The notes under the pieces were generated by a model. That model saw only the letters and a list, made by a program, of their open reading frames with translations. It was not told the DNA's origin and searched no databases. A DNA stretch of 39,341 bases, from IMG/VR virus record IMGVR_UViG_2901984674_000003; one strand, given 5' to 3'. This stretch comes from a virus (Duplodnaviria > Heunggongvirae > Uroviricota > Caudoviricetes). The translations under genes and the position numbers were made by a program. Shown here piece by piece: positions 1 through 17,363 of this stretch; the first letter of the stretch is position 1; each line of letters starts with the position of its first letter.

Positions 1-94
1 TCACTGAAATAACGTAGTTCTCTAAGAACTTAGTCTAGACAACAAAACTTGTATTACTACAAGTTACCTACTTTAGTAGGTGGTTACTGTTGAC
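1..94 (-). ncRNA. 5' part of a HEARO/IscB-type omegaRNA (end of an IS200/IS605 element that continues left of the window)
   Basis: Minus strand reads GTCAACAGTAACCACCTACTAAAGTAGGTAACTTGTAGTAATACAAGTTTTGTTGTCTAGACTAAGTTCTTAGAGAACTACGTTA. It has a GTCAA start, an ACCTAC-TAAA-GTAGGT hairpin, a CTTGTA/TACAAG hairpin and AGACTAAG...CTACGTTA, all typical of HEARO 5' ends. No iscB ORF is in the window. Confidence 0.75.
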
Positions 95-423
95 ATTCCA
101 TAGCCTTACCTCACTTTTTTGTTTTTTTAATTAATGACCCCACTGAGTACTCGAAACTCATGTCTATCCACCTAGCAGCAACGATAGGTATAGAATAGGG
201 TCTAACCTACATTTGACTCTACTCACAAATACGAAGAAGTTACAGAATATAGTCTTACGAAATCAAACGGAAAAACAACTGTAAAATACCGTCCTTTCAT
301 AAGATTTAAGGTAGAGTAGAGCAAATGGAACTCGGTTTACCGCAAAAATATTAAATTGTAATCGGTAGGATTGTCCTACCTATAACCTACCAACCTTTTA
401 CAACTGATAGGACTAACCAAGTT

Positions 424-690
424 CTAGGTTTCTTCATAAAAATTATGATAGGTTTGACCGACTAATTGATATTCTTTGACCTTAATAGAATCAGGTAAAT
501 ATTCATCGCCCTTAGATCTAAAAATATCGGCAACTTCCTCAGCGTGTTCTTTTGTAGAGCAAATAGCAATGTTATGCTCAATAAGAACCGTTCTAGTATG
601 GTATTTCTCAACTTTTACCTGATACTCAGTACCTGTCACAATCCAAATTTTATTCATGCAAATCTTCCTCTTTAACAAACACACCGTCAA
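424..690 (-). CDS. hypothetical phage-like protein
   Basis: ORF in the co-directional gene run; the real start may be the second Met (MNKIWIV). Confidence 0.6.
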   Translation of the reverse strand: MTVCLLKRKICMNKIWIVTGTEYQVKVEKYHTRTVLIEHNIAICSTKEHAEEVADIFRSKGDEYLPDSIKVKEYQLVGQTYHNFYEET

Positions 691-1204
691 TCATTTTGCC
701 TTTGCGATTCTTGATTTCGTTGTATGCCATTTCTAATGTTTCTTCCAAGGTAGTGTTGTATTCCTTAGCAATGTCATGTAAGCATTCCATAGTACGTTCT
801 ACTGAAAGATGTTCAAACTCAATAGGACGGTTTCTGTTGTATGCACTGATAATTCGTGAGCTACTGAAAACTAAGTAATTGAACACTTTGTTTACGTCAA
901 AGTTACCCTCTTCCTTATGTTTTTGGGCAAGGTCATCATACTCAGTCCAGAAATTGCCTTCTTCTTCAACTTGTTTTTTAAAGTCGATACCACGAATTAA
1001 GCAATAGATAATTAAGGTTACTTGGTAATCACCTAAGCTATCTTTTACCCCAGAGTCACCATTGATGTTGTCTTCTAACATAGCCAGCCCCAACTCGCCT
1101 TGCTCTTCAATCAACTTAGTGTATTGAGTTCTTGCTTCAACAGTGTCTAAACCCCTGTCTTTAGCCCATTGCTCAACCTTATCCAGTAATTCTAAATAAC
1201 TCAT
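650..1204 (-). CDS. MazG-like nucleotide pyrophosphohydrolase (phage type)
   Basis: KLIEEQGEL, DSLGD and AYNEIKNRKGKMIDGVFVKEEDL motifs typical of phage MazG-like proteins. Confidence 0.85.
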   Translation of the reverse strand: MSYLELLDKVEQWAKDRGLDTVEARTQYTKLIEEQGELGLAMLEDNINGDSGVKDSLGDYQVTLIIYCLIRGIDFKKQVEEEGNFWTEYDDLAQKHKEEGNFDVNKVFNYLVFSSSRIISAYNRNRPIEFEHLSVERTMECLHDIAKEYNTTLEETLEMAYNEIKNRKGKMIDGVFVKEEDLHE

Positions 1205-1356
1205 CAGTCATCATGCCTACTTTCTTTTTTAGGAATATATAGATGTTTTGTATCTATGATAATATCGTTCAAAGAACCTTTGTATTGGTTCTTCCTAGCT
1301 TCTCGATCTTTGATTTTCTTCTTAATATATTTCTCGATACGTTTTACAAGTCCCAT
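1204..1356 (-). CDS. small basic hypothetical protein, 50 aa (MGLVKRIEKY...), not in the ORF track
   Basis: GGAGGG RBS; its TGA overlaps the next ATG (TGATG), suggesting translational coupling. Confidence 0.65.
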   Translation of the reverse strand: MGLVKRIEKYIKKKIKDREARKNQYKGSLNDIIIDTKHLYIPKKESRHDD

Positions 1357-1380
1357 GCCTTTACCCTCCCTTCTTAGGTT

Positions 1381-1830
1381 CTAGGTTTCTAGTCTTGGCC
1401 CTTCATCATACTTCCAGCTAACAGTTAGAATTACTGGATCTTCATTGCTTATTTCAAGGCTTAAGTCTTGATCGTCAAGAACTTCAAGCCATTCTCGCAA
1501 CGTCGGAATATCAACGCTTGGTTTATCTTCTTTCTCAGCTAGATAGAGTTGGTTTTTGTATTTGTTGATGAAATCGTCCAAGCTATAACGGAGTGAACCT
1601 TTATTTTCAGCAGCTTTAGTCAAGTCAAACGATGCTAATTCTGCTACCTTAACAATATCAAAAACAATCATTTTTGCAAGAAGATATGTATTGTATGCCA
1701 CTGGAAGTAGCTCATCATCAGTTTTGCCTTGTATATAATCTTTGATTACTTTGACAACATCATGGTTTGCATTCAGATCATCAAGTAAAGTACCATCTAA
1801 GACGTTGTCCCACTCGAATAGATTACCCAT
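1381..1830 (-). CDS. hypothetical acidic protein
   Basis: 149-aa ORF with GGAGGT RBS, tightly packed with neighbours. Confidence 0.7.
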   Translation of the reverse strand: MGNLFEWDNVLDGTLLDDLNANHDVVKVIKDYIQGKTDDELLPVAYNTYLLAKMIVFDIVKVAELASFDLTKAAENKGSLRYSLDDFINKYKNQLYLAEKEDKPSVDIPTLREWLEVLDDQDLSLEISNEDPVILTVSWKYDEGPRLET

Positions 1831-1832
1831 AG

Positions 1833-2228
1833 CTACACCTCCAGCGTTAGTTCTTCTGTTTCTTCTTCAACTTTGATAATTGGCTTGTCCTTACCTCTTA
1901 ATTCACTAACAAAAGCTCTAAACTCATCTGCTGAATGTACTTCTAACAGTTTGCTACGGCTTAGGATAACCGTTGGTGCGTCAACCATATCATTGCGTGT
2001 CTTAACTTCTGCAAGGTATGTTACAGGCATAGAACCTTTGATTTTTACACGTATGGCAAAAGCTCTTGCATTATCGTTTTTCTTATCTACAAACATAGCG
2101 TGGATTGACTTGATTACATCACCACGTACACCGTAAGATGAAGGTTTATAACCATATTCTTCAGCGATGCTTAGGCTTTCTTCAAATGTATCAACCAGCT
2201 CTTGCCTTACATTAGCGAACATTTGCAC
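1833..2228 (-). CDS. hypothetical protein
   Basis: 131-aa ORF, GTG start, AAAGGA RBS. Confidence 0.7.
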   Translation of the reverse strand: MQMFANVRQELVDTFEESLSIAEEYGYKPSSYGVRGDVIKSIHAMFVDKKNDNARAFAIRVKIKGSMPVTYLAEVKTRNDMVDAPTVILSRSKLLEVHSADEFRAFVSELRGKDKPIIKVEEETEELTLEV

Positions 2229-2257
2229 ACGCTCACGTCCTTTCGTTTATCTATACT

Positions 2258-2644
2258 TTAATTCCAATAAAATTCGTAAGTCTTAAGTTTGTATGAAAGA
2301 TCGATATATGTTATATCTACATATGTTCCTATCTTGTTACGTTTACATACTTTTTCTAGTTCCTTATAGATATAATCCTCATCGCTATGCAAACCATTTC
2401 TTACCATAATTTTTTTGAAATAGTCAGAGTTACAAATCCAATAATCTCTACCTTTTTTTGCAGAAATTATGAACTCCTGTTTTAGATAATTAAACATAAT
2501 TGGAGCCTCATTCTTAGCTAATTCTCTCATTTTAGCTTTTTCTTTTTTCTTTTCGACTTTTTCTTCAGTTTGTTTTGCTTTTGTTATTTTTCTTAGCTCA
2601 TCAGCTAATGATTTTTGCTTTGATATACCTAACTTTAGCCACAT
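2258..2644 (-). CDS. hypothetical phage-like protein (start corrected to MWLKLG at 2644)
   Basis: AGGGGG RBS precedes ATG 2644; the longer track ORF runs into a structured non-coding motif. Confidence 0.7.
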   Translation of the reverse strand: MWLKLGISKQKSLADELRKITKAKQTEEKVEKKKEKAKMRELAKNEAPIMFNYLKQEFIISAKKGRDYWICNSDYFKKIMVRNGLHSDEDYIYKELEKVCKRNKIGTYVDITYIDLSYKLKTYEFYWN

Positions 2645-2680
2645 ATAAATCCCCCTAGCTATTAGTTTGTTTTTATGTAT

Positions 2681-3183
2681 GCCCTGCTGCGTTCTCAAAA
2701 CCGCACGAACTCTCAAATCATGGTTACAGGGCTAGTTAGTTACAAGGCAAGGAAACGGAATAATATTATATGCAACAAGGTCACTCACGACCTTTCAAAT
2801 ATTATTTACCTCGCAACCTAGTAGAGTATTCAAAAGAATGTAGTATTTGTATAACGCTTAGGCACTTTGTTATAACCGACTACAAAATCCTTCGGCAAGA
2901 TGTGGTTAACGGAAAAATTTGACTGAAATATAAATAAAAATTTAAAATCAAACCTACACCTTGCCTATGCCCTACCTTGCCTTCAGATACAAGCAACCAC
3001 TCAAATCGTGTGGATATAGGGCTTTGTGCAAAATTTTATAAAAAAAGGAATTTTACTGTTTTTATAAGACGTGTCCTTTAAAGCCAGTAGCTTTAGTTTG
3101 TTTTTGCAAAGAACAGTAAACTTTGCAATGCCCTACCTTGCTCTCGAAAACGTAAGACCACCCAACTATTGTGGCTGTAAGGC
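2681..3183. repeat. three copies of a ~53-nt stem motif (2681-2732, 2969-3022, 3130-3183)
   Basis: Each is closed by GCCCT...AGGGC-type arms; two copies share TGCCCTACCTTGC; a fourth copy lies at 14711-14763. Confidence 0.75.
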
Positions 3184-3224
3184 TAATGTTGACGGAAAGT
3201 AGGTTACACGCTAGGACTAACAGC

Positions 3225-3770
3225 TTATCTGTAGTTAGTTCTAACCAGTTTGTTTCTTGTAACAGGCTTGATGGGCTTTTGCAAATCCATGTTGTTAGCT
3301 TCAATCATTGCTTGCAACACCTTGTGACGATACCTAGGTACATTGCTTTGCAAAACAACTTGCTTGTAGGTTAGCACCGTAGTTCCAGCTGGATATTTCT
3401 TGTCAGCTTTCTTATCGTTTTCTTCTAACTTGATGTTACTTTTTGCAACAATCTTAGTCCCAGCACTGGTCTTTAGGAAATAACAATCCTTACCCCTGTA
3501 GTTTTTGATACGATAATCTTCTACCTTATAAGCAGCTGTTTTAACGGAATGACTTAAGTCCTGGTTAACCTTAAGGTAAAACATCGCTGTAGCCAAAATC
3601 ACAAGTATCATTTCTATCAAGTACTTTTGAGTTTTGACTACTGACTCATCAGTAAAATGAACAATGTACAACATTGGTAGGACACAAGCTACAATGCCAA
3701 ATATAGCCAGCGCTAACAAATATGGCACGATTAGGTAAATCAGTTTATCAAAAAGTAGAAACAAATCCAT
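3225..3770 (-). CDS. two-TM membrane protein, paralogue family A
   Basis: Two hydrophobic segments, then a YKV..Y...Y.LKT..GTKIV...GT...Y..P.Y domain shared with 8885, 11554, 17881 and 18467. Confidence 0.75.
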   Translation of the reverse strand: MDLFLLFDKLIYLIVPYLLALAIFGIVACVLPMLYIVHFTDESVVKTQKYLIEMILVILATAMFYLKVNQDLSHSVKTAAYKVEDYRIKNYRGKDCYFLKTSAGTKIVAKSNIKLEENDKKADKKYPAGTTVLTYKQVVLQSNVPRYRHKVLQAMIEANNMDLQKPIKPVTRNKLVRTNYR

Positions 3771-3958
3771 GGTGCAACCTTCTTTCCTAAAGTATGTAGT
3801 AATGGTTTTGGCTTGGTTAAGCCTATGACTTAGTACCCTTCGACAAGTGCTAAGTCTAACGTTTGTTTGAGATCCTGATTTTTACACGGCATAAAGTTGT
3901 GAATGTATACCGTCCAAACGTTAGCAGTTTTGTGACATGCTAGGGTCAAGCATTGTCG

Positions 3959-4165
3959 TTACTTGCTTTCTTCTAATTCAGATAAAGTTTTGTTGAGCTT
4001 AGTATCTGTTGTTTGTATAAAATCTAGCAACTCACCAAAAGCATCGGCTAGTTTCTTTTCATTATCTTCTGCATTCATTGCTAAATTCATACTTTTAGAT
4101 TCAATTGCATTGAATGCAGCTGCAACTAAGTCACGCTGTTTAGTTAATTTTTCAGTTTCAGTCAA
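3959..4165 (-). CDS. small coiled-coil hypothetical protein
   Basis: 68 aa, TTG start, overlaps the upstream stop. Confidence 0.6.
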   Translation of the reverse strand: MTETEKLTKQRDLVAAAFNAIESKSMNLAMNAEDNEKKLADAFGELLDFIQTTDTKLNKTLSELEESK

Positions 4166-4445
4166 TGTTAACCCTTCTTTCTGAGTTTTCCTTTCCCATT
4201 CCTAGTGCTAATGCCATGAAGATTAGTTTGTCTGCGTTACACATATCATCGAAAAGTTTATACAAGATATAAGGTGTATTTTCGTTTTTACCTTGAATCG
4301 AAGTTCCTATTAAACCATCGTTTCCTAAAGCTACAAGCACTTCGTCATACCCTTGTTTTTCTAAGATTTGTGCGATGGTATCAGCTTCTTTGTAATTTTC
4401 TTTTGCTTGTCTTACTTTTTCGTTTATGCCAATCATATTAGCCAC
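4158..4445 (-). CDS. hypothetical protein
   Basis: 95 aa, GAGGTG RBS, downstream of a consensus promoter. Confidence 0.7.
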   Translation of the reverse strand: MANMIGINEKVRQAKENYKEADTIAQILEKQGYDEVLVALGNDGLIGTSIQGKNENTPYILYKLFDDMCNADKLIFMALALGMGKENSERRVNID

Positions 4446-4519
4446 CTCTTAAATCCGTTACTAAAGAAATCTAATATACGATACTTTAAACGTAAGTTTC
4501 TCGATTAATTCATAAGTTT

Positions 4520-4570
4520 ATTATACCCTGTTTCCAACATTTAAGCAATTCTTTTTATTAACTTTTTCAA
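4520..4570 (-). promoter_or_regulatory. sigma70-type promoter with upstream TTGAAAAAGTT box
   Basis: TTGCTT(4548-4543)-17 nt-TATAAT(4525-4520); box at 4570-4560. Confidence 0.75.
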
Positions 4571-4581
4571 ATTGAATTATT

Positions 4582-5151
4582 TCAATCCCTGAACTTGCCT
4601 ATAAAATAAACATTGGTTGTGCCTATTTGCATGGCTTTCTCAGCATTGCGAAAAGGTAGGTCTTCTTTCTTGTACTTAGATATAACGACTTTTCCATCGA
4701 AAGTATAAGTATGGTAACCTTCAAACATCAGCCAAAAGTTGTAATAACCTACGTTGTTTCTGACAGCATAAACCGACATTATTAACATTATGATCAGGTT
4801 CATAACAATCGTTGGACTAGACTCTGGTTTTAACGTTAGTACAGGTATAGCACACATCAGCAAGAAGTTAGTTATTCCTGGACTTTCCAACTTCCAATTG
4901 GAGATGTCGATCGGATCTTTGCTACGATTTTTAAAATCGACTTCTGCAGAACTCAACCACCAATCGCTTGCAGTAGATGAAAGTATCGTGATTACAACAA
5001 GTGTAATCCATAACCCTGGATTAACACTTAGCAAAGCCTCAACGCTATCCTTAGAAAAATCGTGCAAGTTAGCTAAGAAAACTAGGATAAATACAGGCAC
5101 GTACGAAGACCAAAATAACAAGATTTTGAAGATTTTTGATAGCATCACCAC
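4582..5151 (-). CDS. four-TM membrane protein resembling KwaA of the Kiwa defence system
   Basis: SSYVP in TM1, N-F-L-L..-IP after TM2, YYN..L...GY..Y after TM4; no KwaB-like neighbour. Confidence 0.45.
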   Translation of the reverse strand: MVMLSKIFKILLFWSSYVPVFILVFLANLHDFSKDSVEALLSVNPGLWITLVVITILSSTASDWWLSSAEVDFKNRSKDPIDISNWKLESPGITNFLLMCAIPVLTLKPESSPTIVMNLIIMLIMSVYAVRNNVGYYNFWLMFEGYHTYTFDGKVVISKYKKEDLPFRNAEKAMQIGTTNVYFIGKFRD

Positions 5152-5166
5152 AACCTCTTTTCTAAC

Positions 5167-5280
5167 CTAGATTTTTATTTTTGAAAGATATTTACCAACA
5201 ACAGCCAATACCTTATTCAACTCTTTTTCCATATTTTGGAATATTCTGTACACCGAAAGAGCATTACTCTCATTTGCCAT
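5167..5280 (-). CDS. small hypothetical protein, 37 aa (MANESNAL...)
   Basis: Overlaps the end of the methyltransferase gene; GGAG upstream. Confidence 0.4.
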   Translation of the reverse strand: MANESNALSVYRIFQNMEKELNKVLAVVGKYLSKIKI

Positions 5281-5746
5281 TAACAAACACACTCCACCTT
5301 GTTTTACTTCGTTTATCGCCTAGAATTGGCTTTTGTTCAAACACTTCAAACACATCTTTAATTTTGATTTGATCTTCGTTCCATTTAAACAGCAGCACAC
5401 CATTAGGCTTTAGCACTCTCATACACTCATCAAAGCCTTGTTTTAGGTCTTGTTTCCACGTATCTTTATTGAGTTTTCCATACTTTTTAACTAACCAAGA
5501 GTTAGATCCAGCGTGAATCAAGTGCGGTGGATCAAATACCACTAGGTCAAAGCTATCATCAGCAAATGGTATATTTCTAAAATCAGCCACTAGGTCTGGG
5601 TTGATCTTCACTTCTCGCACAACATCTCGATCGGTATAAGCCAACACTTCATCACGGATATCCATGTACGTAGTGTTAGGCTCGTGCTTGTCGTACCAAA
5701 ACATTTTTGATCCACAGCACACGTCTAGTATTTTCATCGACATCAC
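5270..5746 (-). CDS. class I SAM-dependent methyltransferase, phage type (probable amino-methyltransferase acting on DNA)
   Basis: ILDVCCGSKMFW SAM-binding motif and VVFDPPH catalytic motif. Confidence 0.85.
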   Translation of the reverse strand: MMSMKILDVCCGSKMFWYDKHEPNTTYMDIRDEVLAYTDRDVVREVKINPDLVADFRNIPFADDSFDLVVFDPPHLIHAGSNSWLVKKYGKLNKDTWKQDLKQGFDECMRVLKPNGVLLFKWNEDQIKIKDVFEVFEQKPILGDKRSKTRWSVFVNGK

Positions 5747-6273
5747 CTGTCTTTGCTTGGTTTAAAAATAACTGTACTTCCATCATCAGTTAGATAAACA
5801 TATATTTGATAGCTCTTCAGATATTCAAGCACAGCTTCGTCCAACACGAAATAAACATCAGTAAACTTTTCTTTAACAATATTTTGGCTATCACTAATAC
5901 CTTTTTTAGCTTGGTTTATAATTTTTAAAACAATACCATTCACCATTGAACCTATTTCAAAATTCTTGGTTGCTATATCGTGTGCGTTTTCTGCTGTTAT
6001 AACACCGATACCACCACTTGCCTTACATTCTTTACTGCTTAATTTAGGATAAGTATAAGCCACTAAGAATGTTTGTGTATCGTTAGTTTCACCAGCTGAT
6101 ACGCTGACTCCATAGCCTAATTTCTCTAACATGTTCTTTACAGCATTAGCATACTTAGTAGGTACTGCAATCTTAGTGCTATTCATGCCTATTTTAGCTG
6201 CTGATAAGATTTTGTTTTTTACATACGTAACCGTTAGTAAATCAATTTCTTCTACGTCCATCATATTCCGCAC
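5743..6273 (-). CDS. hypothetical protein, paralogue of 17364-17855
   Basis: Shared K.vDl...I...A..G.....L..LGY.V pattern. Confidence 0.7.
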   Translation of the reverse strand: MRNMMDVEEIDLLTVTYVKNKILSAAKIGMNSTKIAVPTKYANAVKNMLEKLGYGVSVSAGETNDTQTFLVAYTYPKLSSKECKASGGIGVITAENAHDIATKNFEIGSMVNGIVLKIINQAKKGISDSQNIVKEKFTDVYFVLDEAVLEYLKSYQIYVYLTDDGSTVIFKPSKDR

Positions 6274-6593
6274 ACCGCCTCGGTTAAATGTCTACCAATA
6301 ATTCGGATAATTCTTCCAATAGTTTCAATATTCTCTAAGTCAACAGCCCCACTTTCATCTGTTTCAAATTCAAACCAGTTTCTTACATAGTCGATTTTAT
6401 TGATATAGATATGGCTAGACTTATAGTAGATTTTGACCTCAGATACCAACGTTTCTACGAACTGTTCATCACGTCCGTACTTAAAACCATGGTTATCCAA
6501 TACAACGACTTCTAAGCCACTGAATCTATCACCAAAATTTAGAGGAAACAGAGTCCTTAGCTCATTCATCATGTTCTTCATGTTTTCATTCAC
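6261..6593 (-). CDS. hypothetical protein
   Basis: 110 aa, overlaps both neighbours as expected for coupling. Confidence 0.65.
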   Translation of the reverse strand: MNENMKNMMNELRTLFPLNFGDRFSGLEVVVLDNHGFKYGRDEQFVETLVSEVKIYYKSSHIYINKIDYVRNWFEFETDESGAVDLENIETIGRIIRIIGRHLTEAVCGI

Positions 6594-6858
6594 GATCCAA
6601 TTGCTCCTTTACAAGCTCTCTTTCATCTTTGCTCAGCCTATCGTATAATCGTACAATCAGCTTACTGGCTAATCTATCATCAAATATGCCACCGTTATTT
6701 AGTAACCCTAAAATTAAGGCAAACTTTTCTCTTTCTTCCAAACCCCTGATAGTTCCTACTAGCTCTGTTTCATTATCAATTAAAACAACGAACTTCTTAC
6801 ACCCAGCTTGATTAATAGTTTTGATAACTTTGTTTGATAATTCTTTTGCTTGATACAT
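6586..6858 (-). CDS. hypothetical protein
   Basis: 90 aa, GGTGGTGA RBS; weak resemblance to 4158-4445. Confidence 0.65.
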   Translation of the reverse strand: MYQAKELSNKVIKTINQAGCKKFVVLIDNETELVGTIRGLEEREKFALILGLLNNGGIFDDRLASKLIVRLYDRLSKDERELVKEQLDRE

Positions 6859-6869
6859 ATAATCACCAC

Positions 6870-7052
6870 CTAACCTCTATTAAAAGCCACAATAACTAAG
6901 CAAAAAGAAGCAGATACTAAAAGCCCTATAACGTAGACTAGAAGTAAAAATAACGGATCGTCATTAAATAGCATACTTATTACAAATGATAAGATTAGCA
7001 TTATCAAAGAAATCAATAATACGATTAAAGCTATAATTTCTATTGCTGTCAT
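6870..7052 (-). CDS. small two-TM membrane protein
   Basis: 60 aa, almost entirely hydrophobic, AGAAGG RBS. Confidence 0.65.
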   Translation of the reverse strand: MTAIEIIALIVLLISLIMLILSFVISMLFNDDPLFLLLVYVIGLLVSASFCLVIVAFNRG

Positions 7053-7086
7053 TAGTTTCCTTCTTTCTAACCTTAGTATTTCTCTT

Positions 7087-7323
7087 TTACAACTTTAAAT
7101 TCCATGCTGCAACCGATAGTGATGCAACTATTCCTACTAGGCTTAGCAAAAACACAATCCAACAAATTACACAAGCATTCTTCGATAATTCTAAGTCATC
7201 TTTGGTCAATATCGCTCCATAAGTAAAGATCGACACAATCATTGATATTTCAAAAACAATCCACGACCATGGTATTTGATGTATGCCAGGAATTTTGATG
7301 GCTAATAAATACACAGATGTCAT
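7087..7323 (-). CDS. small membrane protein
   Basis: 78 aa hydrophobic; ATGA overlap with the ATPase stop. Confidence 0.6.
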   Translation of the reverse strand: MTSVYLLAIKIPGIHQIPWSWIVFEISMIVSIFTYGAILTKDDLELSKNACVICWIVFLLSLVGIVASLSVAAWNLKL

Positions 7324-8330
7324 GCTTGCCCTTCTTTCTGCTTCTTATGCAAAATAGAAAACTCACGCTGAGTGAAGTCAAAAGCATTTACGGTAGGTAT
7401 ATCGCCGTACAACCTAATATACAGTTGTCTAAGATAATCATACGGATCATCTGGATCGCTAAAAGCTAACGATACTTTGATAAGATTTCTCAAATTACCA
7501 GGGTTTGGAACATCACTATATCTAATAATTTTTTCAAAAAAGTTCATGTCCTTACGTAAACCCTTGTATTGCTTCATATATTCTTTTAATAAATATTTAG
7601 CCACTTCGATCTTGTCATTTTCGGTATAACGATCAAAATCTACCGTTGCATCAAATCTTCTCGCTAACGCTTTATCTAAATACTTAAATAAGTTTGTCGT
7701 AGCAATTAAGACTACATCTGGATTTAGATTATCGAATTGTCGCAAAAACGTTGATGTAACACGTCCCATCTCTCGAGAATCATTTTGATTGATACGATCA
7801 AGTGCAACGGCATCTATTTCGTCAAATAAGATAATGTATTCTTCTAAGGACGGTAGTTCGTTTATTGCTTTGAACATTTTTGTTACATTTTTCATCGACT
7901 TACCTAACTTACTGTCGATTAGACCGTTAAAATCAACTATCAGTAGCTTCCTGTTAAGCTGTTTCGCTATTTGCTTAGCACTTTCCGTTTTCCCTGTACC
8001 TGGGGAACCAACAAACAAGAATTTGTTAATACCTGGTGCCTTACGTTTAACAGCATTAACTATCCCATTAATATCATTCGTGATTGCCTTTGGTAGTAGC
8101 ATATCTTTTGTATCTAATTTAGCTACAGTTAAGTTATCTTCTACAATTGAGTCCTCTGATTTTTGAAAGATTGATTTACGTGATGATATTATCTGCATAA
8201 TCTCTTGCGATAACATCGAATCCCCTTTATTATAAAAGTCATTAGCAATCCTAACTGCTTGATTTTTAAACTCTAGCTCGTTGTCTGCATAATGGTATTT
8301 AACAAGGTCAATTACATCAGCTTTCTTCAT
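7320..8330 (-). CDS. AAA+ ATPase of the family normally paired with an S8 subtilase (IetA-like)
   Basis: Walker A GSPGTGKT, Walker B ILFDEID, ATTN and ALARRFD; N-terminal MKKADVIDLVKYH...F...A..IA..F...GD..LS..I pattern. Confidence 0.8.
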   Translation of the reverse strand: MKKADVIDLVKYHYADNELEFKNQAVRIANDFYNKGDSMLSQEIMQIISSRKSIFQKSEDSIVEDNLTVAKLDTKDMLLPKAITNDINGIVNAVKRKAPGINKFLFVGSPGTGKTESAKQIAKQLNRKLLIVDFNGLIDSKLGKSMKNVTKMFKAINELPSLEEYIILFDEIDAVALDRINQNDSREMGRVTSTFLRQFDNLNPDVVLIATTNLFKYLDKALARRFDATVDFDRYTENDKIEVAKYLLKEYMKQYKGLRKDMNFFEKIIRYSDVPNPGNLRNLIKVSLAFSDPDDPYDYLRQLYIRLYGDIPTVNAFDFTQREFSILHKKQKEGQA

Positions 8331-8335
8331 TAGTT

Positions 8336-8857
8336 TTACCCTTCTTCCTTACTCTTAACCAACTTGATTTTTTTGATTTTCTCCTTATAGATAATACTGT
8401 TAATCTCAGATTGTTTGAGAATTGGTACATACTTGTATATAGATGTTATGTTAATATTATCTTCGTTAGTTTCAGTCGATTTAACCCCATCTAATATGTA
8501 TGTGAATACAAAATCTCCTTCTGGGCTATCAGTTATCGCAACCCATAAACACTTCTTGGTTTTGTAGAACTCACCAGCTTTGATATTGTCCGTGTTTTTA
8601 ACCGTAGGATACACTTTCGCATGATCAAATAGCCTAACGTTAACACTCAAATCTTGTGCAACTACAGAATAAGTAATATTGGAACTGTAGTCAGCATAAC
8701 TTGCGATTATATGCAAAACAACGTATTTCTTACCACTGACCTCAACCACGTCGCCGACATTAAGACTTGGGTTCTCAAAGCTTTTTCGCTCAATTCGTAG
8801 CCAAGTAGTTACAGTTTGTCTTCTTTTTTTGCTTGTGATTTTCCCTAACAGTTCCAT
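8336..8857 (-). CDS. hypothetical beta-rich protein
   Basis: 173 aa, AGGAAGG RBS. Confidence 0.65.
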   Translation of the reverse strand: MELLGKITSKKRRQTVTTWLRIERKSFENPSLNVGDVVEVSGKKYVVLHIIASYADYSSNITYSVVAQDLSVNVRLFDHAKVYPTVKNTDNIKAGEFYKTKKCLWVAITDSPEGDFVFTYILDGVKSTETNEDNINITSIYKYVPILKQSEINSIIYKEKIKKIKLVKSKEEG

Positions 8858-8884
8858 AATCTAGCCTTCCTATCTACGTTTTTT

Positions 8885-9430
8885 CTAATCCTTCGCTTCA
8901 TTTTTTACGTATTTAAAAGTCATTAGCATACTTGGGTTTTTAGCCTGCGTAAGCATTTTAGTCAATATTTTTGATTGATATTCAGGCAAACCATCTGGTA
9001 TTTTTAACTCAGCATATTTAATTTCTGTAGTTCCAATTTTGCGTTTATCATCAGTTAAAGCTTCCATATGTACAACGTCAACCTTATCTTTATCAATAAC
9101 TTTTACACCTTTGTTTGTCCTAATCGTATAAAACTCTTTTCCACTAGCTTTTGATAACGAGTATGAGTCAACCTTATATTCAACAGGTTCAGCAGTGTTA
9201 TCGAAATCGTGGATCATCATAAATCTAATTGCAAAAATTTCTAAAAAAGTTAATAGTAAATTGATTACAAACAAAATAGATATTAGCTTGATATTTAGAA
9301 ATGACCCACTAGTTATGAATGTATAGATAACAGCAATTATAAGCTGGATAGTAAAAAATAAGGTACCAGTTGTTGCAAATATATGATTATCTTCGTCTGC
9401 TAGCACCATTGTATATATTAGCTTTTTCAT
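8885..9430 (-). CDS. two-TM membrane protein, paralogue family A
   Basis: Aligns by eye with 3225-3770. Confidence 0.75.
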   Translation of the reverse strand: MKKLIYTMVLADEDNHIFATTGTLFFTIQLIIAVIYTFITSGSFLNIKLISILFVINLLLTFLEIFAIRFMMIHDFDNTAEPVEYKVDSYSLSKASGKEFYTIRTNKGVKVIDKDKVDVVHMEALTDDKRKIGTTEIKYAELKIPDGLPEYQSKILTKMLTQAKNPSMLMTFKYVKNEAKD

Positions 9431-9455
9431 CGAATTTAACCCTCTCTAGCCTTCA

Positions 9456-9600
9456 TGTTTAGTGATCTTCCAATGATGAACTACACACCGATTAAAATTG
9501 GTGGTTTCTGGGAACTCTAGGTAGTATTTAGAACTAAGTCTAACTTACAGAACCTAGATATATTACCATGGTACGTCCCATACCGTTTTGCTTATTTAAG
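9456..9600 (-). ncRNA. TnpB omegaRNA (reRNA) with flank-derived guide starting at 9475
   Basis: Lies between the tnpB 3' end and the right-end hairpin/TCAT; the 5' limit is uncertain and may extend into tnpB. Confidence 0.65.
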
Positions 9601-10864
9601 CTACTTGCTTTAATCCTTTAGCTAAGATGTTTCTAGCTGCGTTAACATCTCTATCGTGATGTGTACCACAATTATTACAAGTCCACTCACGAACATCTAA
9701 TGACTTCTTACCTGTATTTACACCGCAATTAGAACATACTTGTGAAGTGTAATTAGGATTAACTATAATTAGTTGTTTTCCATACCAATTACACTTATAT
9801 TCCAACATGGAACGGAATAAGTACCATGAACCATTAGCGATTGCTTTTGCTAGTTTATGATTTTTCATCATATTCTTAGCTCTCAAATCTTCAATAACGA
9901 TAGTATCGTATTGTTTAACCAACATTGTGGTTAGCTTATGCAAGTAATCTTTACGTGTATTAGCTATTTTAGCTTGTAGTCTAGCCTTAGTTCTTTGTGC
10001 TTTTTGTAGATTTTTAAAATCATTAAAATCTCTAGGAACTAATACTTTAGAGTATTTATCGCTTTCAATACAAACTTTAGCTTGATGTCTACGCTTAGAA
10101 AACTTACGTTGCCACAAGTTAGCTTTTCGTTCTAAATCTTCAACATGGAATGTATCATATTTTATTCCGTCAGAAGAAATAGCCAAATCTGCTACACCTA
10201 AATCTAATCCAACTGCTTTATTTGTCTTAGGTAACAATGCTTGATTTTCACATTCTACCTGTAAAGATAAATAATAACGACCAGTTGTATCATAACTTAG
10301 GGTATAGCGTTTAATTCTACAATCGGTGAGTTGTGATGTTTTGCTAGTTTTGATATATCCTAACTTAGGTAGTTTCATGTATCTTTTAGCTACGATATGA
10401 ATAGTGGATTTACCTGTATATGATTGTTTGTAGAATTTCCTAGACTTAAATCTAGGCTTACCAAAACCAGATTTAAAGAAGTTCTTCCACGCTTGATATA
10501 GATTTTGACAATCTACTTGTAAGGCAGAACTGTCACTTTCTTTTAAGAAAGGATATTCAACTTTTAATGGCTTTAACAACCTATGCAACCTATATTCAGT
10601 CAACATAGGTAAATCTTTGTTGTTTTGATAACGTTCATTCATCATAGCTAACATATTATTCCAAATGAAACGACTATTTCCAAACATAATATCCAATTGT
10701 TCACGTTGTTTCTTATTTGGATAGATACTTAATTTCACACCTTTTAACATCTAACTCACCTCACTATCATTCTGCAAAATTATAATAATAATTTTAACTT
10801 GTATATTATAGTTTTGGGGCTTACATCCCACGATTAAAGTCGTAGGCTTTCAGCCTTATTTTTA
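9476..10864 (-). mobile_element. non-autonomous IS200/IS605-family element (tnpB only, IS1341-like)
   Basis: Left-end hairpin 10827-10846 is preceded by guide AAAG, which predicts a TTAC cleavage site (present at 10868-10865 and 10882-10879). Right-end hairpin 9486-9503 is preceded by GAAA, which predicts TCAT (present at 9479-9476). No tnpA. Confidence 0.85.
9596..10750 (-). CDS. tnpB: TnpB RNA-guided endonuclease
   Basis: N-terminal HTH (IYPNKKQ...FG..RFIWN), RuvC-I GLDLG, RuvC-II IEDL, CxxC/CxxC zinc finger and RuvC-III DRDVNAA all intact. Confidence 0.95.
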
Positions 10865-11043
10865 GTAAATTTCCAATTGTAAGGCAAATCATAGCTCTTA
10901 ATAATTATGAACACATCGCTCACGTTTAGTCCCATCTCTTTTGCCAGCTCTTGCATCAGATAATCTGGGTGCTTGACGCAAAGTTCTTTTAGTTTGTCAA
11001 TTCTTTGTTTGGAATATTTGTCTGTCCTTGACATGATAATCAC
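10834..11043 (-). CDS. small HTH-like protein whose 3' end runs into the IS left end
   Basis: LMQELAKEMGLNVSDV helix-turn-helix-like segment; last codons fall in the IS left-end hairpin. Confidence 0.6.
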   Translation of the reverse strand: MIIMSRTDKYSKQRIDKLKELCVKHPDYLMQELAKEMGLNVSDVFIIIKSYDLPYNWKFTKNKAESLRL

Positions 11044-11097
11044 ACCTTTCTTCTATAATTAATCGAAGTGCAATTTAGACTATTCTTACACTCCGAA

Positions 11098-11301
11098 TTA
11101 ACAATGTCCTTCCTTGTCAAAAATTCTAAATTCAACTTCCAGTTTAGCCATTGTTTCAAAAAACAATGCTATATCTTCTACAATCCATAGTTCAAATAAT
11201 GCTAGATCAAAAAAATAAAATAACCCCATAAGAAATGTAGCTGCGTTTGCTAAAAGTGTTACGATTAACGCTGTAGTCAGTGCTTTACCTAACAATCGCA
11301 T
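11098..11301 (-). CDS. small membrane protein
   Basis: Hydrophobic N-terminal half, GGGGAG RBS. Confidence 0.55.
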   Translation of the reverse strand: MRLLGKALTTALIVTLLANAATFLMGLFYFFDLALFELWIVEDIALFFETMAKLEVEFRIFDKEGHC

Positions 11302-11321
11302 AACAATCTCCCCTTTGCTGT

Positions 11322-11435
11322 TTACTTAGCTGTTGGTTTTGCTTTTTCTAATTGCTTTTCTTCTAGCTTTTTCTTGATACGTCTTTGCTTCTTCTTAACG
11401 TATGATCGTTTGTGTTTTTTAGCCTTTTTACCCAT
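11322..11435 (-). CDS. 37-aa very basic peptide (MGKKAKKHKRSYVKKKQRRIKKKLEEKQLEKAKPTAK), not in the ORF track
   Basis: GAAAGGA RBS 8 nt before ATG; fills the gap between neighbours. Confidence 0.7.
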   Translation of the reverse strand: MGKKAKKHKRSYVKKKQRRIKKKLEEKQLEKAKPTAK

Positions 11436-11553
11436 TATTTCAGTCCTTTCAAATTAATTAATAATCATAGTTGATCTTAGCTTCTATCCTAATTATCAGC
11501 TGTACCAAATCTATAATTGAATTTTTAGCTTGTACAGAAGTTAGCTCCTTGTC

Positions 11554-11988
11554 TTAATAGTCATACTTATACGTTGTTACAATCAGTTCTGACGGTGGAT
11601 TATACATTAGAAATAATCTTTGCCAAAAATGTTGGTTACTTTTGGTTTTTCTAAGTTCTACCGACTTAGTACCGTCTTTGTGCTTACTGTTAGGCAACTT
11701 GTTTTCACGAACCACTCTAGCTGTAAGAGTTAGCGTCTTTCCATCTTTCGTTTTGATATTATACTTATCAGCTAAAATTCCTCTATCTTCTACCATGGTG
11801 TAATGCTTGACCTCAACTAATTTTGGCTCGTAGTACCTACTATCAGCTGGCATCACACCTAAAATTTGAGTCATTGGAGCGATGAAAAACAAGCTAATTG
11901 TAACTACGAAAAATAGTAAGTCAAAAAACTTGTCCCATAGTTTGTCTGAAAGCATTCCTACACACCTCTCCCATATCTTTTCTTCCAA
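11554..11988 (-). CDS. membrane protein, distant member of paralogue family A
   Basis: TM segment then Y.IKTKDG...SKHKDGT motif. Confidence 0.6.
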   Translation of the reverse strand: MEEKIWERCVGMLSDKLWDKFFDLLFFVVTISLFFIAPMTQILGVMPADSRYYEPKLVEVKHYTMVEDRGILADKYNIKTKDGKTLTLTARVVRENKLPNSKHKDGTKSVELRKTKSNQHFWQRLFLMYNPPSELIVTTYKYDY

Positions 11989-12458
11989 GCATTATACGTG
12001 TAGTATTTCTTACCGTTGATTAATTTGTGTAACCTAACAGCTTCACTAATCAAATAAGTTGACTTGCCTGTTTCCATTTGCAAATGTCCGTACAACTTGT
12101 TTTTATTATGGTAGACCTTATATGTTTCTGTCATTTGATCTACTTCATAGATACGTGATTTTCTTTCGTAATATCTATCAATAACTTCTCTTAGACCTAA
12201 TTTTTCAGTACGGTAGTAGTTATAGGTGATTCCAGCCTTAGCAAAAGCAGGGGCTGGTGCTACGTCATCTTCAATTAGACGTCTAATCTTGTCGATAATT
12301 TCAGGTGTAACTTCAACAGTTTGGTACTTTTCATTCCTTGCATTAAGAATTACCTGCCTGTCTTTTTCAAGGTAAGATGGAACTCCTGATATATTTTCGT
12401 CCCACTCTAAAATTGGTTTCCAAGCTTCTAACCGTATTACACTTTCTGTCACACTCAT
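11958..12458 (-). CDS. putative DNA-binding protein, paralogue of 14124-14675
   Basis: Shared RLE.WKPI.EWD..ISGVP.YLEKDRQ.ILNAR; C-terminus resembles NUMOD1-type helical domains. Confidence 0.7.
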   Translation of the reverse strand: MSVTESVIRLEAWKPILEWDENISGVPSYLEKDRQVILNARNEKYQTVEVTPEIIDKIRRLIEDDVAPAPAFAKAGITYNYYRTEKLGLREVIDRYYERKSRIYEVDQMTETYKVYHNKNKLYGHLQMETGKSTYLISEAVRLHKLINGKKYYTYNAWKKRYGRGV

Positions 12459-13839: not shown

Positions 13840-14070
13840 CTAATATTTGCGTAAATAATCTTTAATAACGGCTAATTTTTGCTTTTGTGTTAACTTCTCA
13901 AATTCTTTTCTTTGCTTTTTATCTAGCTCTTGCGTAAACCTGTCATAAACGTTGCAAGGCTCTTTTTTATCCTTTGTTTCTACCATATAATCACATTCTT
14001 TCTGTTTCCAAAGAAATCTAAAATACGATACTTTAAGCTTGCAAACTACCGTTGGATCAACGTTTTTCAT
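13840..14070 (-). CDS. hypothetical protein, probably leaderless
   Basis: ATG lies 7 nt downstream of a TATAAT box; no RBS. Confidence 0.6.
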   Translation of the reverse strand: MKNVDPTVVCKLKVSYFRFLWKQKECDYMVETKDKKEPCNVYDRFTQELDKKQRKEFEKLTQKQKLAVIKDYLRKY

Positions 14071-14076
14071 ACCTTT

Positions 14077-14127
14077 ATTATATATCGTTACTCAATATTA
14101 AACAATGTTTTTTGTTAACTTTTTCAA
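14077..14127 (-). promoter_or_regulatory. sigma70-type promoter with upstream TTGAAAAAGTT box
   Basis: TTGTTT(14105-14100)-17 nt-TATAAT(14082-14077); box at 14127-14117. Confidence 0.75.
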
Positions 14128-14675
14128 TTTACTGTTACTAAAGACCAATCACCATCAAAATCAAACTTTGATTCCATGTTTTCTTTCTTCCATGTTTTAT
14201 ACGTGTAATAAGTCATGCCTTTCATCATAATATGAAGTTGCATTAAATTCTTAATTGACGATACGGTTTTGTTTGTTTCTTCGTGTATGCGTCTGATTAA
14301 GCCCACACGGTCATGATAAATTCTCACCACTTTGTTCTTTTCGTCTATTTCATAAACCCTTGACGTTCTTTCTTTATAAGCGTCAATTGTATCTTTCAAA
14401 CCTAGTTGAACCGCTCTGTTATAATCATAACTCATCTTAACTTCTCTAAAAGCAAACGTAGGTGAGTTATCTTCTTCAATTAATTTCTTGGCTTTTTTAA
14501 GCCTGCGATCAAAGCTTAGTTCTTTCCAATTAAGCTCTACTCTAGCGTTTAGAATTATCTGCCTATCCTTTTCTAAATAAGGCGGAACTCCTGAAATATC
14601 ATCGTCCCACTCAGAGATAGGCTTCCAATTTTCTAAGCGACTTACGCTTGGAACGATATTTCTCACGACACTCAC
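14124..14675 (-). CDS. putative DNA-binding protein, paralogue of 11958-12458 (GTG start at 14675 or 14666)
   Basis: N-terminal identity with the paralogue begins at VSV; the track start lies in a structured non-coding motif. Confidence 0.7.
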   Translation of the reverse strand: MSVVRNIVPSVSRLENWKPISEWDDDISGVPPYLEKDRQIILNARVELNWKELSFDRRLKKAKKLIEEDNSPTFAFREVKMSYDYNRAVQLGLKDTIDAYKERTSRVYEIDEKNKVVRIYHDRVGLIRRIHEETNKTVSSIKNLMQLHIMMKGMTYYTYKTWKKENMESKFDFDGDWSLVTVN

Positions 14676-17339: not shown

Positions 17340-17363
17340 TAACCTCACTCCTTCGTTTGTGTA

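Follow-up and report, generated by a model that had tools for sequence, protein, structure and literature searches.

A lone KwaA homologue maintained on a linear megaplasmid family of Ligilactobacillus salivarius, a candidate decoy of the Kiwa defence system

Kiwa is a bacterial defence system composed of the membrane protein KwaA, with four transmembrane helices (TM1 to TM4), and of the DNA-binding protein KwaB, which carries the DUF4868 domain, and defence requires both kwaA and kwaB (Zhang et al., bioRxiv 10.1101/2023.02.26.530102). In the parts of that preprint drawn on here, Escherichia coli KwaA is described as a tetramer with a central pore, in which TM3 lines the pore and the tetramer interface, and in which intracellular loop 1 (ICL1) and the C-terminus form a six-stranded cytoplasmic beta-barrel that docks KwaB. 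The same parts report that conjugation dropped by a factor of more than two with four of five Kiwa operons and that Gam of phage lambda, the published Kiwa inhibitor, binds KwaB. According to its methods, the main survey of the system kept only operons with both genes, so that lone KwaA genes were left out of it by design. On the side of the plasmids, the portion of the work on establishment islands used here presents orphan methyltransferases as a leading class among the genes with which plasmids establish themselves and counter defence (Samuel et al. 2024, PMC11541004); in the main text of that paper Kiwa has 0 occurrences. Here we examine a lone kwaA-like gene (4582..5145, minus strand), hereafter the orphan, in a stretch of 39,341 nucleotides (nt; IMG/VR record IMGVR_UViG_2901984674_000003) that is referred to throughout as the window. 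We describe its fold, the loss of its partner gene and its maintenance on a linear megaplasmid family, and weigh the possibility that it acts as a counter-defence factor against Kiwa.

The preliminary description of this DNA had assigned the gene to the KwaA family from remembered motifs, and the assignment proved correct by four approaches: PADLOC models, a family profile, and the structural comparison programs Foldseek and VIA-align. The PADLOC KwaA model PDLC00214 matches the predicted protein far beyond chance, at an E-value of 3.9e-49 (165 bits, residues 5-184 on positions 2-180 of a profile of 181), and 6 additional KwaA models in PADLOC match at E 2.4e-4 or better. PHROG 7312, a family whose function is not known, also matches, and precomputed annotations assign PF28043.1 to 24/27 close relatives of the orphan; the local copy of Pfam returned only sub-threshold noise for the orphan itself. 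A search of the Protein Data Bank (PDB) with the single sequence found no match, and a profile of 36 family members reached the solved E. coli KwaA (PDB 9mrg and others) at E 4.5e-16, in an alignment that spans E. coli residues 5-152 only. Since this alignment ends at residue 152 and the loop is unconserved between clades, the KwaB-contact residues of E. coli cannot be mapped reliably onto the orphan.

The AlphaFold2 model, built on the family alignment, reached a mean predicted local distance difference test score (pLDDT) of 84.2 and a predicted template modelling score (pTM) of 0.77. It contains four long helices (4-25, 43-74, 91-103 and 110-129) and aligns over its full length with a four-TM KwaA structure, in agreement with the four TMs first proposed; a crude Kyte-Doolittle scan (window of 19 residues, threshold 1.6) detected three of the four membrane helices, missing one because TM3 is short. 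The model also contains six beta elements, of which the loop 75-90 provides two and the C-terminal part four, an arrangement that matches the published KwaA barrel as far as a predicted structure can be compared with it. When the model was compared with the PDB using Foldseek, the seven best matches were all KwaA chains, with a template modelling score of up to 0.68, and no non-KwaA chain fell below E about 1. VIA-align superposed model residues 1-186 on residues 2-195 of 9mrx_A, the KwaA chain of a KwaA-KwaB complex, with Z 14.6 and a root-mean-square deviation of 3.6 A over 175 aligned residues, ~14% of which are identical to those of the orphan; the next chain, an unrelated one, had Z 3.8. 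Taken with the model scores, these comparisons show that the predicted gene product is a true, full-length folded KwaA of the four-helix membrane sensor type with a cytoplasmic beta-barrel. The full-length fold is thus common to the orphan and to KwaA of E. coli O55:H7 and ECOR strains (PDB 9mrg, 9mrr, 9mrx), from which the orphan differs in having no kwaB in cis or on its replicon, in residing on a linear megaplasmid and in belonging to a Gram-positive host.

The gene had been delimited as the minus-strand open reading frame (ORF) 4582..5151, which begins with GTG and encodes 189 amino acids (aa). The ATG at 5145 is the likelier start, as AAGAGG (5154..5159, minus strand), a ribosome-binding site, lies 8 nt before it and the relatives, which use the equivalent ATG, begin with MLSKIF and are mostly 187-191 aa long; this start gives a protein of 187 aa (4582..5145, stop codon included). 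Two of the three motifs noted beforehand were found as claimed, SSYVP at residues 13-17 and YYN..L...GY..Y at residues 134-147. The third, given as N..L..IP, is present with a spacing one residue longer in its second half (N93-xx-L96-xxx-I100-P101).

The absence of kwaB was assessed at several levels. None of the 48 window ORFs of at least 60 aa matched a PADLOC KwaB model at a cut-off of E 1e-3, and tblastn searches of the window with KwaB of the closest clade returned nothing at E-values up to 10. Profile comparison by hhalign gave a KwaB probability of 1.1% or less for four window neighbours; for two of these, the 95-aa and 181-aa proteins encoded downstream, it did not exceed 0.35%. Because the window represents 39 kb of a replicon of ~170-180 kb, two near-complete relatives were searched too: the plasmid NZ_CP123973.1 (166,598 bp), whose KwaA is 93.6% identical to the orphan, and a 180-kb IMG/VR record (94%). 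Six-frame searches of both relatives with PDLC00224, PDLC00227, PDLC00236 and PF16162 did not find KwaB, and the three PADLOC KwaB models recovered their targets in control genomes at E-values of 4.2e-104, 2.5e-162, 2.3e-38 and 1.9e-24. The absence rests on these PADLOC models, PF16162 having missed the L. salivarius-type KwaB in a control. No KwaB was seen at four further metagenome loci of the orphan lineage either. The description of the gene as an orphan therefore holds for the window and for two near-complete relatives of its replicon, and the arrangement by which a Kiwa system is recognised, with kwaB (DUF4868) in the same operon as kwaA, is lacking at this locus.

Elsewhere in the Lactobacillaceae the two genes keep together. 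A KwaA match was obtained in 11/401 genomes, in nine of which KwaB directly adjoins KwaA, with the order kwaB-then-kwaA in 8/9. Both exceptions are decay products: in L. vaginalis (L005/L007) an intact kwaA (L005 1019-1573, PADLOC E 7.9e-81) follows a 41-aa C-terminal remnant of kwaB, and in another Lactobacillaceae genome there remains a kwaA fragment with two stop codons. In all eight prophage-like IMG/VR contigs with a KwaA of the near clade, a full-length KwaB gene ends just before kwaA, and a Lacticaseibacillus paracasei plasmid also carries a kwaB-kwaA pair. The PF16162 scan found KwaB in 8/401 genomes, each also with KwaA; this model is insensitive, since it missed the KwaB of the L. 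salivarius genome G069. In that genome, KwaB (PDLC00227, E 7.4e-163) precedes KwaA (PDLC00217, E 3.7e-75) and a type I restriction gene adjoins the pair; the stretch is 99.9% identical to the 248.5-kb circular L. salivarius megaplasmid NZ_CP047413.1, the sole PLSDB record with an L. salivarius-type KwaB.

The nearest relatives of the orphan outside its own lineage are the Limosilactobacillus and prophage-like kwaB-kwaA operons (e.g. that of L. caccae, L004), with 38-40% identity. Their KwaA shares with the orphan the best PADLOC model, PDLC00214, and the C-terminal signature GYHxYxF...QIGTTNxYxI, and their KwaB corresponds to PDLC00224. At these loci a KwaB gene of ~310 aa ends a few bases before kwaA (three of four genomes and 8/8 viral contigs; the fourth genome has the kwaB remnant only), whereas the orphan lineage carries in place of kwaB a methyltransferase gene and a variable spacer.

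An exhaustive phmmer search of 1.84 billion representative sequences, with a cut-off of E 1e-3, retrieved 49 clusters; beyond the orphan lineage itself, the closest has 44% identity. A tree was built from 79 KwaA proteins and rooted at midpoint only, and in it the 30 rows of the orphan lineage form one branch, with a support of 100 in the Shimodaira-Hasegawa-like approximate likelihood ratio test (SH-aLRT) and a stem of 1.3 changes per site. This branch is nested within a kwaB-linked clade of Limosilactobacillus and prophage sequences, in which kwaB adjoins kwaA wherever the context was read, and its sister is L. vaginalis KwaA, with an SH-aLRT of only 88. As judged from these sequence relationships, the tree shows the orphan to descend from a complete kwaB-kwaA operon of the Limosilactobacillus/prophage type, and the earlier proposal of a captured defence subunit fits this topology. 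L. vaginalis resembles the orphan in having an intact KwaA without a working KwaB, but there the gene lies at its original locus in a bacterial genome, beside a kwaB remnant and on a short branch (0.26), with no evidence of long retention.

That decay of this kind occurs, and that the orphan clade has L. vaginalis as its sister (at the support given above), could make the orphan itself a functionless remnant of a Kiwa operon degrading after the loss of kwaB. The evidence from its relatives renders this very improbable. The ratio of nonsynonymous to synonymous substitution rates (dN/dS) is 0.16-0.27 over the 6 pairs formed by 4 copies, with dS of up to 0.89; the ribosome-binding site is conserved and the length is 187 codons in all four copies for which DNA was available; and 25/27 protein clusters at 72-96% identity have lengths of 180-191 aa, while the remaining two, with 167 and 121 aa, cover 88% and 63% of the query. 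At the level of substitution rates, these data show that the orphan has been kept by purifying selection after heavy change on one long stem.

Constraint is unevenly distributed along the protein. The lowest dN was found in the cytoplasmic loop and the C-terminus (0-0.13) and the highest in TM1-TM2 (0.22-0.30 in five of the six pairs, and 0.012 in the near-identical pair of the window and L003). Between the window and L011, the protein is identical over TM3-4 (dN 0) and TM1-2 have a dN of 0.23, a contrast which suggests that the N-terminal half has been exchanged between copies. When columns at least 70% conserved in the near bacterial KwaA clade were considered, the orphan clade was seen to retain 11/12 in the C-terminal domain, 3/7 in TM3 and 0/1 in the cytoplasmic loop (D88S); a family-conserved T-Y pair at the start of TM3 has become M-C. 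By comparison with the E. coli protein (Zhang et al., bioRxiv 10.1101/2023.02.26.530102), the regions under strongest constraint would correspond to the barrel that docks KwaB, and the altered helix to that lining the pore.

Conservation of the cytoplasmic KwaB-docking domain would also be expected if the orphan belonged to an ordinary Kiwa system split over two replicons, with the KwaB gene residing in the chromosome of the strain or in a further plasmid. The absence of KwaB was established for the replicon, through the window and two relatives, the chromosome of the window's strain being outside that scope, and the partly incongruent KwaA and KwaB trees reported in the available parts of the preprint of Zhang et al. 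suggest occasional independent transfer. We nevertheless regard such a split as quite improbable. The PF16162 scan of the 401 Lactobacillaceae genomes, insensitive as this model is, found no solitary KwaB; the two genes adjoin wherever their context was read (9/11 genomes and 8/8 viral contigs); the single L. salivarius KwaB found is already paired with a neighbouring KwaA, which belongs to another subtype; and the PLSDB plasmids of the strain carrying NZ_CP123973.1 match neither KwaB type.

The identity of the replicon bears on what the orphan might act against. Searches of PLSDB with window positions 1-12000 gave 14 matching records, 11 of them from Ligilactobacillus, and the best match was NZ_CP123973.1, a linear L. 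salivarius plasmid (90.3% identity over 75%). This plasmid encodes RepB and RepA initiators, ParM, ParA and toxin-antitoxin pairs, together with transfer-like or envelope-like genes (sortase, M23 peptidase, a large AAA ATPase, FtsK/SpoIIIE, an SspB-type adhesin and a SEC10/PgrA surface exclusion protein) and further envelope-related genes for a LysM protein and a flotillin; this amounts to a conjugation-like gene set of the Gram-positive type. There is no relaxase or oriT among its 164 annotated features, and PLSDB types it as non-mobilizable. Part of the window also matches pLMP1046, described as a linear extrachromosomal L. salivarius replicon on the basis of pulsed-field gel electrophoresis and Southern blots in the portion of the study consulted (Raftis et al. 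2014, PMC4165912), and the 180-kb IMG/VR record, rated 97% complete, is collinear with the whole window at 84-94% identity. By these sequence matches, the replicon is a member of a linear, conjugation-like megaplasmid family of Ligilactobacillus salivarius, for which plasmid transfer is as relevant a challenge as phage infection.

A large lytic phage had been considered for the same DNA, as suggested by the genes on one strand, the PHROG matches and the 97%-complete IMG/VR relative. This reading was rejected, given that no match was found among the 50,697 phage records of INPHARED, either by DNA or with two proteins, and given the linear plasmid match in PLSDB and the Rep, Par, sortase and exclusion genes; the replicon may be a phage-plasmid. 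Within the family, kwaA occurs in 1/11 of the Ligilactobacillus plasmids matching this part of the window, and a related plasmid carries other small genes in the kwaA region, so that kwaA is an accessory cassette in a mosaic arm. The virus record listed as nearest (G001) ends before the kwaA region and is uninformative on kwaA. DNA searches of the 401 Lactobacillaceae genomes returned mostly TnpB and methyltransferase gene matches; G069 showed two weak matches to window genes, at 83% and 70% identity. On NZ_CP123973.1 itself, the stretches at ~14.9-21.7 kb and 159.8-166.5 kb (L027, L039) carry identical accessions in inverted order near both ends, with RepB, a transposase and four hypothetical proteins duplicated, which points to a long terminal inverted repeat or else to an artefact of assembly.

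Under the reading that we tentatively favour, with a probability of roughly 0.35, the orphan would be a counter-defence factor, a KwaB-binding decoy that helps the plasmid to evade Kiwa. The arguments in its favour are that both Kiwa genes are needed for defence, that Kiwa cuts conjugation, that kwaA is linked to a methyltransferase and that Kiwa exists in the host species. On entering a Kiwa-carrying cell, the plasmid would produce the orphan KwaA, which would insert into the membrane, and its conserved cytoplasmic beta-barrel, which in the E. coli structure serves KwaB as a docking platform, would capture the KwaB of the cell. With its altered pore and interface helix TM3, the orphan would be unable to pass on the activating signal, and KwaB would stay parked at the membrane, neither released nor activated, instead of engaging the DNA that enters, which the neighbouring methyltransferase would shield from restriction enzymes. 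It is doubtful, though conceivable, that a signal-dead orphan either soaks up KwaB or poisons KwaA-KwaB fences, in which case Kiwa would have its first inhibitor of the subunit-mimic kind, and an anti-Kiwa factor would have been found on a plasmid for the first time. Gam is proposed to be comparable in its point of action, the neutralisation of KwaB, but it is a soluble DNA mimic unrelated to the Kiwa subunits, whereas the orphan is predicted to mimic the membrane subunit of the system itself.

The methyltransferase in question (5270..5746, minus strand), which depends on S-adenosylmethionine, has no recognised restriction partner. It matches PHROG 954, annotated as DNA methyltransferase, at E 2.4e-77, the PADLOC models MTase_II at 3.3e-67 and that of orphan methyltransferases at 1.3e-56, and in Pfam the families Methyltransf_11 and Methyltransf_25. 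It lies upstream of kwaA in all four loci whose upstream DNA reaches 1 kb or more (L003, L011, L013 and L026), and no methyltransferase match was found in the 629 nt available upstream at L012. As in the establishment islands (Samuel et al. 2024, PMC11541004, as far as the part used here describes them), the orphan region consists of one-directional small genes with a methyltransferase and without a complete defence system: every ORF taken as a gene in the window is on the minus strand, and the PADLOC scan of the window returned only single components, namely the methyltransferase, an IetA-like ATPase and a TnpB read as Cas12f-like. The orphan therefore clusters in one orientation with a gene of establishment type, which is an association only. 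A difference from the islands is that the repeated elements found here read as ordinary double-strand promoters of the sigma-70 type, rather than as single-stranded DNA promoters.

Several observations weigh against a decoy. The orphan is 22% identical, over 147 aligned residues, to the KwaA of the sole L. salivarius Kiwa found, and the KwaB proteins of L. salivarius and L. caccae share 17% identity when aligned; with identities this low on both sides, cross-binding is not obvious. Kiwa is rare in the sampled hosts, with KwaA in 11/401 genomes and one PLSDB record of L. salivarius-type KwaB, and selection for an anti-Kiwa gene may therefore be weak. The fast-evolving and apparently exchanged membrane half would fit variable partners outside the cell better than it would a cytoplasmic sponge. 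Furthermore, the gene cannot be said to lie in a leading region, since NZ_CP123973.1 has no annotated relaxase or oriT and its PLSDB type is non-mobilizable. Finally, contigs from two RNA libraries (one cultured organism, two studies) span kwaA at ~94% identity; these are assembled contigs, which cannot prove transcription, and if they do represent real RNA, expression in the resident state would fit a role protecting the host at least as well. Stretches left uncovered in the two metatranscriptomes carry no meaning.

Such a role is the basis of an explanation that is nearly as likely as the decoy, although itself doubtful: a sensor, acting alone or with a new partner, that benefits the resident plasmid and its host. 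If acting alone, the KwaA tetramer would serve as a channel gated by membrane stress, leading to abortive infection or to the exclusion of phage or plasmid DNA. The central pore of the tetramer, as presented in the preprint, could open on a trigger (Zhang et al., bioRxiv 10.1101/2023.02.26.530102), the changes of the orphan clade are concentrated in the pore-lining TM3 (4/7 conserved columns), the membrane and extracellular half evolves fastest and the RNA-library contigs come from a cultured organism. Conversely, the strongest constraint falls on the cytoplasmic domain and not on the pore; NZ_CP123973.1 already has a gene dedicated to surface exclusion, of the SEC10/PgrA type; and deletion of kwaB abolishes defence in E. 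coli in the part of the report by Zhang et al. considered here, where KwaA alone is thus not known to protect.

If instead the orphan had been re-partnered, it would signal to a protein unrelated to KwaB and encoded nearby, and the immediate surroundings of the gene, in which the preliminary description had correctly placed the methyltransferase, a 37-aa ORF and a promoter (4548-4520), are relevant in this respect. Candidates are provided by conserved neighbours of 95, 68, 181 and 176 aa that have no known function. Downstream of kwaA lie the genes for the 95-aa protein (4158-4445), the 68-aa protein (3959-4165) and the 181-aa protein (3225-3770), the last with an N-terminal half that looks hydrophobic in translation, all on the minus strand and without a known family; none of the three matched PHROG, PADLOC or Pfam. 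They are present in 5/5 loci with downstream DNA (L003, L011, L012, L014 and L026) and represent a conserved context of kwaA, and at most putative partners. Against a partner among them stands a strong promoter between kwaA and these genes. This near-consensus promoter of the sigma-70 type (TTGCTT-17-TATAAT, 4548-4520), recognised by a motif scan within a copy of repeat D1, occupies with its A-rich upstream tract positions 4520..4573 of the minus strand. It follows kwaA closely and is directed towards the genes beyond, so that kwaA is the last gene of its unit; a search for intrinsic terminators between 2200 and 8500 found none. The promoter belongs to a dispersed element of ~52-65 nt (repeat family D1) with copies at 4509-4573 and 14066-14130 on the minus strand, and the 180-kb IMG/VR relative has 10 more matches to the copy at 14076-14127; this element probably drives many short transcription units of the one-directional arm.

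On the upstream side, the methyltransferase has the orientation of kwaA and is probably co-transcribed with it. The two are separated by a variable spacer containing the 37-aa ORF (5167..5280, minus strand), which has no Pfam match. In the IMG/VR relative the spacer is absent and the gap between methyltransferase and kwaA is 29 nt; in NZ_CP123973.1 an annotated 106-aa ORF fills most of the spacer and part of the 37-aa ORF matches before kwaA; and one metatranscriptome contig skips 5176-5272. As this spacer varies, no fixed partner gene is apparent.

The genes of the related plasmid also invite an explanation unconnected with defence, in which the orphan would have retained only the KwaA fold for a membrane role in transfer, envelope homeostasis or ion transport. 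The heavy remodelling along the stem of 1.3 changes per site and the many envelope functions of that plasmid (sortase, M23 peptidase, LysM, flotillin, adhesins) are in line with it. This explanation is improbable, as the family signature is fullest in the KwaB-docking domain, kwaA travels with a methyltransferase and not with transfer genes, and its presence in 1/11 matching Ligilactobacillus plasmids implies that it is not core to the replicon.

Other features of the window were recorded in passing. A 336-aa AAA ATPase (7320-8330, minus strand) matches the PADLOC IetA models with a best E-value of 1.1e-39, as well as PHROG 3757, and no IetS-like partner was found among the 48 window ORFs scanned; it may be another solitary member of a two-gene defence system within this arm, or just a generic AAA ATPase. 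An 804-aa fusion (14934-17348, minus strand) combines kinase (AAA_33), metallophosphatase and T4-type RNA ligase domains, the architecture of RNA-repair enzymes. Phage RNA-repair enzymes of such architecture undo the cleavage of tRNA by host anticodon nucleases, and by analogy the fusion may be another counter-defence gene. A TnpB, an RNA-guided nuclease of the IS200/IS605 family (384 aa; 9596-10750, minus strand), is inserted in the arm, and relatives carry IscB or another TnpB nearby, which indicates that TnpB/IscB elements move within the plasmid family. The window also contains three copies of the Rfam salivarius-1 RNA (RF03030; 2679-2732, 2967-3022 and 14709-14763, minus strand), scoring 52-58 bits against a gathering score of 50, and a MazG-like pyrophosphatase (650-1204, minus strand), the protein of which is 100% identical to the copy in NZ_CP123973.1 and the DNA of which shares 91.7% identity with a gene of the circular plasmid pMP1046B; a paralogue lies nearby in L012.

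The term anti-Kiwa was not found in the literature searched, and among the matches listed for KwaA together with phage-encoded, no title or abstract beginning indicated an orphan KwaA. The present analysis describes solitary KwaA genes of one lineage that selection has preserved on a mobile megaplasmid, whose host is a gut commensal with probiotic use. If the orphan blocks Kiwa, plasmids would be able to evade a membrane-based immune sensor by copying that sensor, and the protein would help to dissect how KwaB is held and released by KwaA. Should it protect alone, the sensor half of Kiwa could itself be an effector.

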